A stretch of 18,298 bases of DNA from a virus (taxonomy: Duplodnaviria; Heunggongvirae; Uroviricota; Caudoviricetes). This document shows, piece after piece, positions 12,001 to 18,000 of this stretch. The position numbers are program-made. Each line of letters begins with the position of its first letter. Within the stretch, counting starts at the first letter, position 1. Where the stretch lies: positions 1 to 18,298 of the IMG/VR virus record IMGVR_UViG_2529292905_000017; one strand, given 5' to 3'.

Positions 12001-15000
12001 GACAAGAGGAAAGCAGAAGAGCTGGTTGTCACATTGTACAGACACAGAGGCGTTGATTATTGATCGCGTTATCAGTGAGGTGCTTGGGGAATATCCCGGG
12101 CTAATCAATGTTCTCCGGCAAAGGTACGAAGGACGGGGAATGAGCAAACTGAAAATGGCCGAAAGGTTAAATGCAGATCATCCTGATTGGTCGTTGGTTA
12201 CGTGCAGACGCCGAATTGATCAATGGTTGGGGGTATCTGAATTTATGTTATATGCCCCCATGCGCATGGCTTTTGTTACAGAGAAAAATGTTGCAAACTG
12301 ATCAATAAACTGCTTCAATCCGTATAAGCTTCGCAAAGCTGTATCGCGAGGCGAAACGCAAGTTTTTTTCGCACAAGGAAGCCACCGGAAGGTGGTTTTT
12401 TTGTGTCCGCGATATACAGTAGCGCAATAAATTCGCTGGTGGTTATTAATACCGTTCTTTCAGCTTGCTGGCTTTTTCGACAAGAGTTATTGGTGTGTCA
12501 CGTTAACCGGAAAAGGGAAAAAGACATGCTAAAACAGCAGGATATGACAGAAACCGCCAGAGTGGTGTTTAATGAATTAAGCGTTACCGAACCGGCGACA
12601 GTCGGGGAGATAGCGCAGAATACTTACCTTTCACGCGAACGCTGCCAGTTAATACTGACCCAGCTGGTTATGGCGGGTCTGGCAGACTATCAGTTCGGTT
12701 GTTACAGACGCCTTCCGCAGTGAAGGCTTTTTTATTTGTGGTAAATGGGCGGCTGGTGGGTGTTAGGGGCACCCACCAGCCATCTGCTCATGCGTTGGGT
12801 TCACAAGCAAACCTCAGGCCCACTGCTTTGCGCAAAAGCAGAATGAGCCTATCAGAGACAGGCTTAATGATCCATGCTTAATACTGTAAAAATATCCAGT
12901 TGTGAGTTAATCAACGCCGACTGCCTGGAATTTATCCGGTCGTTACCCGAAAATTCTGTTGACCTGATAGTCACGGACCCGCCGTACTTTAAAGTGAAGC
13001 CTGAGGGCTGGGATAACCAGTGGAAGGGCGACGATGATTACCTGAAGTGGCTGGACCAGTGTCTGGCGCAGTTCTGGCGGGTGCTGAAACCTGCCGGAAG
13101 TCTTTACCTGTTCTGTGGTCATCGCCTGGCATCTGATATCGAAATCATGATGCGTGAACGCTTCAGTGTGCTGAACCATATTATCTGGGCGAAGCCGTCC
13201 GGACGCTGGAACGGATGCAACAAGGAAAGCCTGCGGGCGTATTTCCCCGCCACAGAGCGCATTCTGTTCGCGGAACATTATCAGGGGCCGTATCGTCCGA
13301 AAGATGCCGGGTATGAGGCGAAGGGCAGGGCACTGAAACAGCATGTGATGGCCCCGCTGATTGCTTACTTTCGTGATGCGCGCGCTGCCCCGGGGATAAC
13401 GGCAAAACAGATTGCAGATGCCACAGGAAAGAAAAACATGGTGTCGCACTGGTTCAGTGCCAGTCAGTGGCAGTTGCCGAACGAAAGCGATTATCTGAAA
13501 TTACAGGCACTGTTTGCCAGGGTGGCAGAAGAGAAGCATCAGCGGGGGGAACTGGAAAAGCCCCACCACCAGCTGGTGGATACGTATACTTCACTGAACC
13601 GACAGTATGCGGAGCTGCAGAGTGAATATAAACATCTGCGGCGGTATTTTGGTGTGACGGCGCAGGTGCCGTACACGGATGTGTGGACACATAAACCGGT
13701 GCAGTTCTATCCCGGGAAACATCCGTGCGAAAAACCGGCAGAAATGCTGCAGCAGATAATCAGCGCAAGTAGTCGTCCTGGTGATCTGGTTGCGGATTTT
13801 TTCATGGGGTCGGGTTCAACGGTAAAAGCGGCGATGGCACTGGGGCGTCGTGCGATTGGTGTTGAGCTGGAGACCGGACGTTTTGAGCAGACAGTCAGGG
13901 AAGTTCAGGATTTAATCGTTTGAAACGGATGAGATTGCAGAATTAATTACGCACCATTATTATTCTGCTCCCGGCCCTTTAGCTCAGTGGTGAGAGCGAG
14001 CGACTCATAATCGCCAGGTCGCTGGTTCAAATCCAGCAAGGGCCACCATCACAAACCGCCATTAGCTTATCAGGAAGAGCAGACGACACGATAACAGGGT
14101 TGTTGGTGCGGGGGGCTGGTCCCCGATGGCGGTCCATTATCGGTATTCAGCGTTGTTAGCTCAGCCGGACAGAGCAATTGCCTTCTAAGCAATCGGTCAC
14201 TGGTTCGAATCCAGTACAACGCGCCATATTCATTCTTCCAGATTCCTTCCGGCAGAGCCTTATACTGGAATATACCTGGCTCAGGATATTGTTGAAAATA
14301 TTATATGTTTGTCAAAAATAAAAGTTCTGTTAAGTATTGATTGAGTGTTTGTTATACGGTCTAATGGTTTTTTCAGTATTAAATATTTATCATTCATATG
14401 GTGTGGGTAGAGTGAATATTGATGGGGCGTCGGGGTGTTTCATCCTTAGGCAGCGTATTGATATAGTCAATGCAGCACGAGCAAAGGCCTTCAGCCGTTT
14501 TACAGTTTTGTTCTGTACTCCTGATCGTCTTTCGGGAAGAGACGTTATTATTCTGAATAGTGATGCTATACAGAGGGTTTGCGATGAGTTCATGGTTGCT
14601 AATTCAGAATTATTTGCTCTTGTTCAGGAGTACAACAGAATAGCCAGGACCTGTGGTATGGATGAACTTCGGATTACTCATCTGGGGTAGATACATATCT
14701 GGATTATCACCTGTTACGGTAAAAAGTGATAGCTTACTGTTTTTGTGAATGGCATTGCAGCAGCCGGATAATGTCAGTGCTGGCTGACGGTGTGCTGGTG
14801 GCGGGTGTGGTGGTTGTTGCTTTCCCGTTGCTGAAAAAGAAAACGCCAGACTGTTAGCCGGGTATCAGTTAGCGGGAGAAATTTTTAAATACTTCACAAT
14901 TCAGGCGGTTGACTGTTGTCTGGTTTGCGGGGAGTTTGTTAAAAGAAACTGGCATGGTGAATCCCCCTGTGCGGAGGGGCAATCAGCGAGTAGGTATATG

Positions 15001-18000
15001 GGATAATCGCGGATTCAGGTGCTGGTACTGAATTCACCGGGAGACACCCGGCACCATGCAATGGCACATAGCGCCACTCTCCAGCCCCTCTCCGGAGGGG
15101 CTGTTTATATTGATTTTGTCAGATGTGAGTAAACTCCTTATGGACTTTGTTGTTTTAGCCCATAAGGACATATTTGCAGAGTGCAACGGTTATTAAAGCA
15201 TTCATTCAATACGTTATCTGTATTTGTAGGGCATTCCTGGCTGTTTTTGATTAAATTCCAGAATGTTTTATTGAATGGTACTACGTTGTAAATGGTTACA
15301 GGTAGCACTTTGTTATTGAGCATGATACCTGTGTGAGTCAGTGTAAATATACTTTCAGGAGGTAAGAAAGCATCCGATTGATACCAGATTATTAATTTTA
15401 TTTTACTCCATATGACTGAAAAAGATATTCCGCATGATGGCTGGATAACTGTATCAATCACAATCCACTTCATTTAGTTTCCTTGTTTATGCCTTGCTGG
15501 TGATGTTCTGAAAAGTATACATGATATTTTTGATTGTAAACCATAGAGCAGAATTATTTTTCTGATGTTGTTTATTGTTTATTTAAATGCAGGGTGGTTT
15601 ATATCTCGTCTTGTAGTTTATCCATGCATATCTGCTTGATGATGAGGTTTTTATTTAAGGTATGGTTTTGTGTTTTTTCTGTATTACATGTCAGGTATTT
15701 TAAAGAATCATTTTTCAGATGGTGGAAAGAACCATGGCATTTAAACACTATGATGTTGTCAGGGCGGCGTCGCCGTCAGATCTTGCGGAAAAGCTGACAC
15801 ATAAACTGAAAGAGGGCTGGCAGCCGTTTGGTAGTCCGGTGGCCATAACCCCTTATACCCTGATGCAGGCGATTGCAGCAGAAGGTGATGTGGTCGTCAG
15901 TGGTGCAACTGAGCCGGAGTGGTACTACGTCATCGTACTGGCCGGGCAGTCCAATGCCATGGCTTACGGTGAAGGGCTTCCGCTTCCGGATTCATACGAT
16001 GCGCCCCATCCGCGCATTAAGCAACTGGCCCGTCGTAACACAGTGACTCCCGGTGGTGAAGTATGCGTATTTAACGACATCATTCCTGCTGACCATTGTC
16101 TGCATGATGTTCAGGATATGAGTACGATTAACCATCCCCGGGCTGACCTGAGCAAAGGGCAGTACGGCTGTGTCGGACAGGGCTTACATATTGCCAAAAA
16201 ACTGCTTCCGTATATCCCTAATAATGCGGGGATCCTGCTGGTACCATGCTGTCGTGGTGGTTCGGCATTCACCCAGGGCACGGAGGGGACATTCAGCGAG
16301 TCCACGGGGGCCAGTCAGGATTCGGCTCGCTGGGGAGTGGGTAAGCCGTTATATCAGGATCTGCTTTTCCGCACGAAGGCAGCATTGCAGAAAAACCCGA
16401 AAAACGTTTTGCTGGCGATATGCTGGATGCAGGGGGAATTCGATATGACGAATGCCAGTTACGCCCAGCAGCCAGCAGCATTTCTTGCAATGGTACAGCA
16501 GTTCCGTGCTGACCTTGCCGGGCTGGCGGCGCAGTGTCACGGTGGAAGTCCGGCATCAGTCCCCTGGATTTGTGGCGACACGACATACGCGTGGAAACAA
16601 GAACACGGTACGCAATATGAAGTGGTATATGGTGCATATAAAGGTAAAGAATCCCAGCAGATTTATTTTGTTCCCTTTATGACCGATGGTAGCGGAGTTA
16701 ATACACCGACAAACAACCCGTCAGAAGATCCTGATATTGTCGGGTCTGGTTATTACGGTTCGGCATCCCGAACGAACAAAAACTGGGTATCATCAAATCG
16801 CCCGACGCATTTCAGCTCATGGGCGCGTCGTGGCATTATTCCCGATCGTATGGCAACCGCTATTCTGAACGCAGCCGGGCGCACCTCAGCCTTCATCAGT
16901 GGTAAGGCACCGGAAATCAAACCCTCGCCCGGCGGCGACACGCCATCGGGTCCGTCTGCAGATACGTCCGTTCGCACAATCTCCCTGCTGCCGACAGCCG
17001 GAGAGGCTGCTGCGCAGGGCTGGACCATTAAGGACGGCGGAATTCAGTTGTCGGGTGGTGTATTTAAGATCGCCAAGCAGAGCAATAAAACCTGGTCCCT
17101 GACGCGCCCGGTGGATGACGCAGTCTCCCTGCTGACACGGGGTGGCAGACTGAGCTGTAAGTTTCGACTGTCAGGCGCACTGACCAACAATCAGTTCGGT
17201 CTGGGAATTTATCTGTATACCGATGTAGCGTTACCTGACGTCGTGGCGATGACGGGTACCGGTAACCCGTTCCTGATGTCGTTCTTCACCCAGACCACAG
17301 ACGGCAAACTGAATCTGATGCATCACAAGAAAGCAGGAAACACAAAGTTGGGCGAGTTCGGGAATTACAGTAACGACTGGCAGACGCTGGAGCTGGTGTT
17401 CACCGCCGGCAGTGCCACGGTTACTCCGAAACTGAATGGAGTGGCTGGCCCGGCATTCCAGGTCATAAAAGACAGTCTGACACTGGGGCTGAATGCGCTG
17501 ACGCTGACGGATATTACCAAAAATGCAGCGTATGGCGTTGAGATAGAAAGTCTGGTGCTGGAGATAAATGCACCGGCATCATCATAAAAAGTGAGCCAGT
17601 CAAATGGAAGGTATCGTTAAACTCACCGGTAGTGTCAGTGGGTCGTCTGAGATGCCTGCATGAGTTATCAGAGCCATCAGTACTTAACTGGTGGCTTTTT
17701 TTATTGTTGTCAGCTTCCGGATAACGGGAGACGGGGTATGTACCAGATGGAAAAAATCACAACAGGTGTGTCATACACCACGTCAGCGGTGGGAACGGGC
17801 TACTGGTTCCTGCAGTTGCTGGACAGGGTTTCCCCGTCTCAGTGGGCGGCAATAGGCGTGCTGGGAAGTCTGCTGTTTGGGCTGCTGACATATCTGACTA
17901 ACCTGTATTTCAAAATCAGAGAGGACCGGCGTAAGGCCGCCCGGGGAGAGTGAATAATGAACCATGAAGAAATGAATCAGCGCTTCAGTCGCCTGGAAAA

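Follow-up and report, generated by a model that had tools for sequence, protein, structure and literature searches.

A probable mosaic cargo cassette with iraL, an STnc100-family small RNA and remnants of tciA-tciB in the stx slot of a defective lambdoid prophage

Background

The closest described relatives of the locus considered here are the stxAB region of Stx phages, the iraL gene of CFT073, the prophage small RNA (sRNA) STnc100 and the tciA-tciB moron pair. The locus is a 1507-bp island (14227-15733) in an 18,298-nt stretch of viral DNA (Caudoviricetes; IMG/VR record IMGVR_UViG_2529292905_000017, positions 1 to 18,298), which is referred to as the window and to which all positions refer unless otherwise indicated. 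Very probably, the island is a mosaic moron cassette that a lambdoid prophage, defective and stx-less, carries in the cargo slot of its late operon (Q - tRNAs - cargo - nanS-p - lysis genes). Its components are a module with a small open reading frame (ORF), here called ORF92, the remains of tciA-tciB, STnc100, and iraL on the opposite strand.

The gene iraL is c1429 of CFT073 (PMC12890032, PMC4045071). Its deletion lowered log-phase sigma-S in both CFT073 and Shigella sonnei (Hryckowian et al. 2014, PMC4045071) and reduced sigma-S half-life by half in CFT073 (PMC4045071). Moreover, IraL bound RssB's N-terminal domain in a two-hybrid assay, and iraL together with 100 nt of its native promoter raised sigma-S in K-12 (PMC4045071). 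The gene has its own sigma-70 promoter, mapped by rapid amplification of 5' cDNA ends (5'RACE) in log-phase lysogens, and its location was given as 'on the potB genomic island' (PMC4045071). IraL and the related IraM of K-12 (YcgW, a Mg2+-starvation anti-adaptor) differ in the conditions under which they act and in their mode of interaction with RssB (PMC4045071).

STnc100 is a prophage sRNA related to the PasD sRNAs of enteropathogenic Escherichia coli and associated with a sialate esterase gene (bioRxiv 10.64898/2026.05.13.724894). The EHEC strain EDL933 has 11 copies, one of which was verified by Northern blot, and RNA-seq data also exist (PMC5331693). Another copy lies 75 nt 3' of stx2 (PMC12370729). 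The moron pair consisting of tciA, a TerB-like gene, and tciB is found in phage JLK-2012, in Citrobacter prophages and in phage P1.

Results and discussion

Composition and recurrence of the island

Database sequence comparison showed that the 1507-bp island was 100% identical to a segment of the E. coli O55:H7 DEC5E chromosome. Copies of its full length with 98.7-100% identity recur, and at least 80% of it is carried by 863 of 5,426 complete E. coli genomes; the island is therefore not a chance feature. What comes after the block 14227-15060, which covers ORF92, the tciB remnant and STnc100, varies: iraL in DEC5E, CFT073 and further genomes, phage tolA-like genes in the remaining ones and in phage mEp460_ev081. 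Phages such as vB_EcoS-733R4 have the part with iraL and STnc100 but lack ORF92. STnc100 belongs to the shared backbone, and the variable cargo lies on both sides of it.

The placement in the stx slot, proposed in an earlier note on this DNA, was borne out by the gene order of Shigella phage 75/02 Stx (Q - stxA - stxB - STnc100 - esterase - holin), in which stxAB lies between Q and STnc100/esterase. The window shares with this phage the order Q - (tRNAs) - cargo - STnc100 - nanS-p - holin. It differs in having neither stxA nor stxB, no such ORFs being found in the island by ORF, Pfam and NCBIfam scans, and in carrying iraL inserted 3' of STnc100 on the opposite strand. Additionally, its left part shows no similarity to the DNA of Stx phages: a sensitive blastn search of 14227-14760 against 50,697 phage records returned mEp460_ev081 as the sole match. 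A decayed stx-flank origin of 14227-14760 was rejected on this basis, and the ORFs of the island do have homologues. In the stx-less phage phi296, STnc100 follows the tRNAs directly (tRNA-Ile/Arg/Arg - STnc100 - NanS).

A reading in line with the earlier note is that the island is a new, uncharacterized virulence or defence cassette replacing stxAB. The position in the stx slot, the AT-rich, foreign-looking DNA, and the absence of a Pfam, NCBIfam or PADLOC assignment for ORF92 are consistent with that idea. However, three of the four elements fall into families that have names (IraL, PMC4045071; STnc100, RF02076, PMC5331693; DUF3927/TciB), and iraL has been characterized experimentally (PMC4045071). 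Moreover, the island holds no toxin-like A/B gene pair, and no defence model of PADLOC-DB 2.0 matched its four ORFs, the upstream methyltransferase alone matching MTase_II models. Defence-system cargo was therefore rejected on the PADLOC scan, and a new cassette is very improbable, having been largely refuted by the identity with CFT073 IraL and by the Rfam match of STnc100. Of the expectation that this moron slot would hold host-interaction or defence cargo, the slot and the host interaction stand, since iraL acts on the general stress response, whereas the defence part does not. Most of the contents (iraL, STnc100 and the decayed tciB) are already described. The apparent mystery island in the stx slot is the published iraL locus together with a known prophage sRNA, and the result is mainly corrective.

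iraL

The 111-aa minus-strand ORF scored 162 bits on NCBIfam NF007393 (anti-adapter protein IraM; cut-off 121), and its residues 1-110 align to positions 1-113 of the 114-position profile. Its product is 100% identical to CFT073 IraL, both by direct translation and by the shared accession WP_000871291.1. CFT073 has the same island, with the proteins WP_000871291.1 and WP_000562553.1, in the potB/potC prophage as well, and the local order of the two is the same, tRNAs - 499 nt - DUF3927 - STnc100 - iraL. The two loci differ on both flanks: a full-length nanS-p esterase gene comes after iraL in the window, whereas CFT073 keeps a DUF1737 fragment only, and the window has two intact tRNAs where CFT073 has three. 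Judged by its sequence, the ORF is iraL, for which RssB binding and sigma-S stabilisation are predicted from the identical CFT073 protein. No evidence contradicting the identification of iraL or STnc100 was found. Comparison of six iraL alleles gave two non-synonymous and four synonymous changes (ratio of non-synonymous to synonymous rates, dN/dS, ~0.13; P = 0.018 versus neutrality), and purifying selection on the gene is visible.

The iraL 5'RACE sequence given in the literature agreed with 15475-15506(-) at 31 of 32 positions. The transcription start is therefore placed at 15506(-), with the -10 element TATACT at 15514-15519. A consensus sigma-70 scan yielded a number of sites not above chance and did not recover this experimentally mapped promoter. 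The promoter alleles differ next to the -10 element. The window allele reads CATGTATACT and has TG at 15520-15521, directly upstream of TATACT (position 15520 is G on the minus strand and C on the plus strand), whereas five other alleles, including that of CFT073, read CATTTATACT. The TG-bearing DEC5E promoter may be the stronger one.

The NCBI Prokaryotic Genome Annotation Pipeline (PGAP) and RefSeq label the gene in DEC5E as IraM, a name that hides the distinction between iraL and iraM. The two proteins share family NF007393, residues 1-78 of the window protein matched the IraM structure PDB 8TWD at E = 9e-32, and both genes lie beside prophage DNA; the K-12 iraM locus has no STnc100, unlike the window. 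In line with the annotated name, the gene might work like K-12 IraM instead of IraL, with PhoP dependence and Mg2+-starvation induction. A PhoP-box-like sequence, TGTTTATTGTTTATTTA, is present at 15569-15585, ~71 nt upstream of the iraL start, with one mismatch and invariant in six alleles. However, the PhoP-box pattern had five matches in the window against 4.2 expected from shuffled sequences, which is not above chance in AT-rich DNA, and the box was rejected as a feature for this reason. Moreover, the protein is identical to IraL and just 62% identical to IraM (over 107 residues), the upstream regions of iraL and K-12 iraM do not align, and the published inducing conditions and RssB interaction modes differ, as described above. 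Regulation of the IraM type is thus improbable, and assignment to iraL is preferred.

With its own promoter and an orientation opposite to the Q-dependent late transcript, iraL is therefore a lysogen-expressed conversion gene rather than a late gene. The proposal that the island is expressed on induction does not hold for this gene, whose promoter was mapped in log-phase lysogens. In 2014, iraL was placed only on the 'potB genomic island'; it sits in a lambdoid moron slot between STnc100 and nanS-p, directed against the late transcript, and this placement explains how a prophage could reset host RpoS during lysogeny.

The cassette probably works as follows. In the lysogen, iraL would be transcribed from its sigma-70 promoter at 15506(-), and IraL would bind the N-terminal domain of the adaptor RssB, blocking the delivery of sigma-S (RpoS) by RssB to ClpXP. 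RpoS would then build up in exponential growth, as was experimentally shown for the identical CFT073 protein. The plus-strand elements, ORF92, the tciB remnant and STnc100, would be part of the late transcript that depends on Q. In a relative that can be induced, induction would lead to their transcription as well, with this transcript passing antisense through iraL.

STnc100

The hairpin-rich segment between the tciB remnant and iraL matched Rfam RF02076 with 128 bits (gathering score 47) over positions 1-206 of the 206-position model and was not truncated. It forms a bump of GC 0.56 at 14900-15099 inside the AT-rich island, and it folds better than shuffled sequences (z = -2.8). Its 3' end is an intrinsic terminator, in which the GC-rich stem (15082-15103) has 9 bp and is succeeded by a T run. 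The full-length model match, the terminator and the location, with late-operon tRNAs or stxB on one side and the sialate esterase gene on the other, are all features of the STnc100 family. Copies were present in every related locus fetched, and syntenic copies were found in six related loci. Across seven copies, the core was conserved, whereas the 3' ends, including the terminator, varied. The segment is a full-length STnc100 on these grounds, and discrete, Hfq-associated expression of the window copy is predicted.

Several minor observations concern this sRNA. A motif, TTGTCT - 18 nt - TGtTAAAAG, was conserved in the seven copies and lies at 14915-14944, within the 5' end of the Rfam model. 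This motif is a possible promoter; if it is one, the sRNA would begin near 14951 and have a length of ~160 nt. In phage vB_EcoS-640R1, two tandem STnc100 copies occupy the same slot (4165-4358 and 4634-4822 of the fetched locus). In Shigella phage 75/02 Stx, a match to AgvB, an anti-GcvB sRNA, was found on the opposite strand directly after STnc100 (4166-4225 of the fetched locus). In addition, RefSeq annotates an 'incomplete hypothetical protein' pseudogene at 14942-15067(-) in many genomes; it lies wholly within STnc100 and is probably an annotation artefact.

Remnants of tciA and tciB

The hydrophobic ORF upstream of STnc100 corresponds to a 43-aa ORF annotated by PGAP, which matched Pfam PF13064 (DUF3927) with 95.6 bits against a gathering threshold of 25. 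The match to phrog_1470 ('TciB-like') covered residues 12-40 only. Phage JLK-2012 (same strain) carries the pair at the same position, after the tRNAs and before the esterase gene, in the order Q - tRNAs - tciA (TerB-like) - tciB - esterase; in the window, the remnants likewise follow the tRNAs and precede STnc100 and the esterase gene. Compared with JLK-2012, the last ~25 nt of tciA survive and the rest is deleted. The GTG start of tciB is now GTT, and deletions of 15 nt and 5 nt remove the N-terminal hydrophobic segment. Homology to tciB is limited to the C-terminal hydrophobic 28 residues, which correspond to the ORF 14771-14857 and are nearly identical to those of JLK-2012. The window has no full-length TciB (~50-54 aa, with both hydrophobic segments and an upstream tciA). 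Polymorphism in the remnant consisted of two non-synonymous and four synonymous changes, and residual constraint is possible.

ORF92

The remaining plus-strand ORF extends from 14337 or 14364 to 14690, its longest ATG version being 14364-14690 (108 aa). Its homologues align from query residue 17, and the likely start is therefore GTG at 14412, giving a protein of 92 aa. Together with its AT-rich leader, ORF92 forms one 499-nt block, which 1,187 of 5,426 genomes contain, as does phage mEp460_ev081. ORF92 had no Pfam, NCBIfam or PADLOC match, and a Pfam scan of eight family members returned noise only. It matched phrog_2873 with 227 bits, and exhaustive searching with HMMER identified, among 1.84 billion representatives, homologues of 91-95 aa with 30-62% identity. 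The family shares the motifs RA.AFS..TV....PD, then V.ILN, then AN.EL..LV.EYN.IA. An AlphaFold2 model built from a 10-sequence alignment (predicted local distance difference test, pLDDT, 87; predicted template modelling score 0.74) showed a helix at residues 3-34, a beta-hairpin at 39-46 and a helix at 50-81, whereas the single-sequence model of the 108-aa ORF (pLDDT 37.7) was uninformative. A comparison of the model with PDB and BFVD gave nothing significant; the best E value was ~0.1, and the nearest structures were generic helical hairpins (EmrA, prefoldin-beta-like topology).

Homologues of ORF92 are encoded on E. coli plasmids beside a PapB/usher fimbrial operon, and one adjoins a type IV pilus gene set. 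In a Citrobacter prophage, the order is Q ... ORF95 - TerB - DUF3927 - holin, and upstream of ORF95, the homologue, are a terminator and a good Shine-Dalgarno sequence. This gene order suggests that the window arrangement may have arisen by deletion of tciA between ORF92 and tciB. From these comparisons, ORF92 belongs to a real small-protein family on prophages and plasmids. We tentatively propose, as a rather unlikely reading, that it is a functional member of an undescribed ~92-aa family with a helix/beta-hairpin/helix fold, acting as a single-gene moron among lambdoid prophages and plasmids (there beside fimbrial or type IV pilus operons). If so, ORF92 could be a small regulator, a host-interaction protein or an anti-defence protein expressed from the late operon, and a conserved 92-aa gene would have been missed by annotation at the matches listed among its E. 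coli carriers.

Several observations weigh against the reading of the island given here, ORF92 being its weak point. ORF92 begins with GTG after a weak Shine-Dalgarno sequence, and PGAP left it unannotated at all 40 matches listed, of the 1,187 genomes with the 499-nt block. Among 10 E. coli alleles, six non-synonymous and three synonymous changes gave a dN/dS of ~0.6, which at this low power was indistinguishable from neutral. Rare alleles carry in-frame deletions or locally frame-shifted stretches. The consensus scan found no good-quality sigma-70 promoter for STnc100 or ORF92. In addition, the prophage is defective (frameshifted integrase, IS3 insertions and split terminase), and expression on induction may not apply to this copy.

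The codon, allele, start-site and annotation data on ORF92, along with the deletion of the adjacent tciA, the damage to tciB and the degeneration of the middle tRNA, would also fit an island that, iraL and STnc100 apart, is decaying filler. ORF92 in E. coli would then be a pseudogene or an unexpressed relic, much as the tciA/tciB remnant is. However, the ORF92 frame is intact in 10 of 10 alleles examined and in clusters of hundreds of members, and the functional phage mEp460_ev081 carries the gene. Moreover, conservation within the family extends to 30% identity, its motif pattern is coherent and its fold is predicted with confidence, and its Citrobacter member has the translation and termination signals mentioned above. 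Decay of this part of the island is quite possible, although somewhat short of an even chance.

The prophage and the flanks of the island

The flanks are as the earlier note had described them, with a Q-like protein, a methyltransferase and tRNAs upstream and a NanS-p esterase and holin downstream (ARAGORN, Pfam and RefSeq; Table 1). The ORFs 14364-14690(+), 14771-14857(+) and 15138-15473(-) and the terminator that it listed were also recovered, as was the AT-rich character of the insert, with GC of 0.30-0.46 over 14200-15700 versus 0.50-0.60 in the flanks. Homology between the window and the stx-less phage phi296 ends ~10 nt past tRNA-Arg(TCT), which puts the island's left edge at the end of the tRNA. 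The segment 14049-14149 received no tRNA call from ARAGORN or Rfam. It aligns with the intact tRNA-Arg of CFT073, FDAARGOS_401 and phage phi296, but its anticodon-arm region is scrambled, with an extra 4 nt in that region.

Table 1 Predicted and annotated features of the island and its flanks (window positions)
Feature	Position	Strand	Basis
DUF1133/Phage_antitermQ protein	11738-12301		Pfam
DNA methyltransferase	12874-13923		Pfam N6_N4_Mtase
tRNA with CAT anticodon (ileZ-type tRNA-Ile2; PGAP name tRNA-Ile), left flank	13973-14048	+	ARAGORN; Rfam tRNA 72.5 bits; RefSeq
Degenerate remnant of the middle tRNA-Arg(TCG) of an ileZ-argN-argO trio	14049-14149	+	Alignment to intact copies
tRNA-Arg(TCT); the island starts directly 3'	14150-14226	+	ARAGORN, Rfam
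AT-rich leader (GC ~0.33) of the ORF92 module, promoter-like hexamers only	14227-14411	+	GC and promoter scans
ORF92, putative conserved small protein, phrog_2873	14412-14690	+	Profile, HMMER, AlphaFold2
Remnant of the 3' end of tciA (TerB-like gene)	14700-14725	+	Alignment to phage JLK-2012 tciA-tciB
Decayed tciB (Pfam DUF3927), PGAP ORF of 43 aa	14726-14857	+	PF13064, phrog_1470
STnc100-family prophage sRNA	14923-15112	+	Rfam RF02076, terminator scan
iraL, predicted RssB anti-adaptor, IraM family, 111 aa	15138-15473	-	NF007393, CFT073 identity
iraL 5' untranslated region and promoter	15474-15585	-	5'RACE match, allele comparison
NanS-p type sialate O-acetylesterase (DUF1737 + SASA + DUF6645), right flank	15719-17587	+	Pfam; RefSeq
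Holin	3' of esterase		RefSeq annotation

The DEC5E locus in RefSeq is a lambdoid prophage adjoining potC. Its order is a frameshifted integrase, excisionase, early genes, IS3, DUF968, RusA and the DUF1133/Q-like antiterminator, followed by the DNA methyltransferase, tRNA-Ile, tRNA-Arg, the DUF3927 protein, a small minus-strand pseudogene and 'anti-adapter protein IraM', and then the SASA esterase, holin, lysozyme and a terminase split by another IS3. The damage to the prophage lies at window positions 1-801, ~1099-2541 and ~8546-10090 and downstream of the window: the integrase is frameshifted, the exonuclease is truncated, an IS3 has inserted in the DUF977 gene, and the large terminase is split by the second IS3.

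In the early region of the prophage, a RelE/ParE-family toxin gene and small neighbouring ORFs are annotated at ~3899-4177(-). At 12710-12727, ~400 nt 3' of the Q-like gene, a hairpin resembling a terminator, GCCTTCCGCAGTGAAGGC, precedes a T run; this is the position where Stx phages would have tR' and a StxS-like short pR' transcript.

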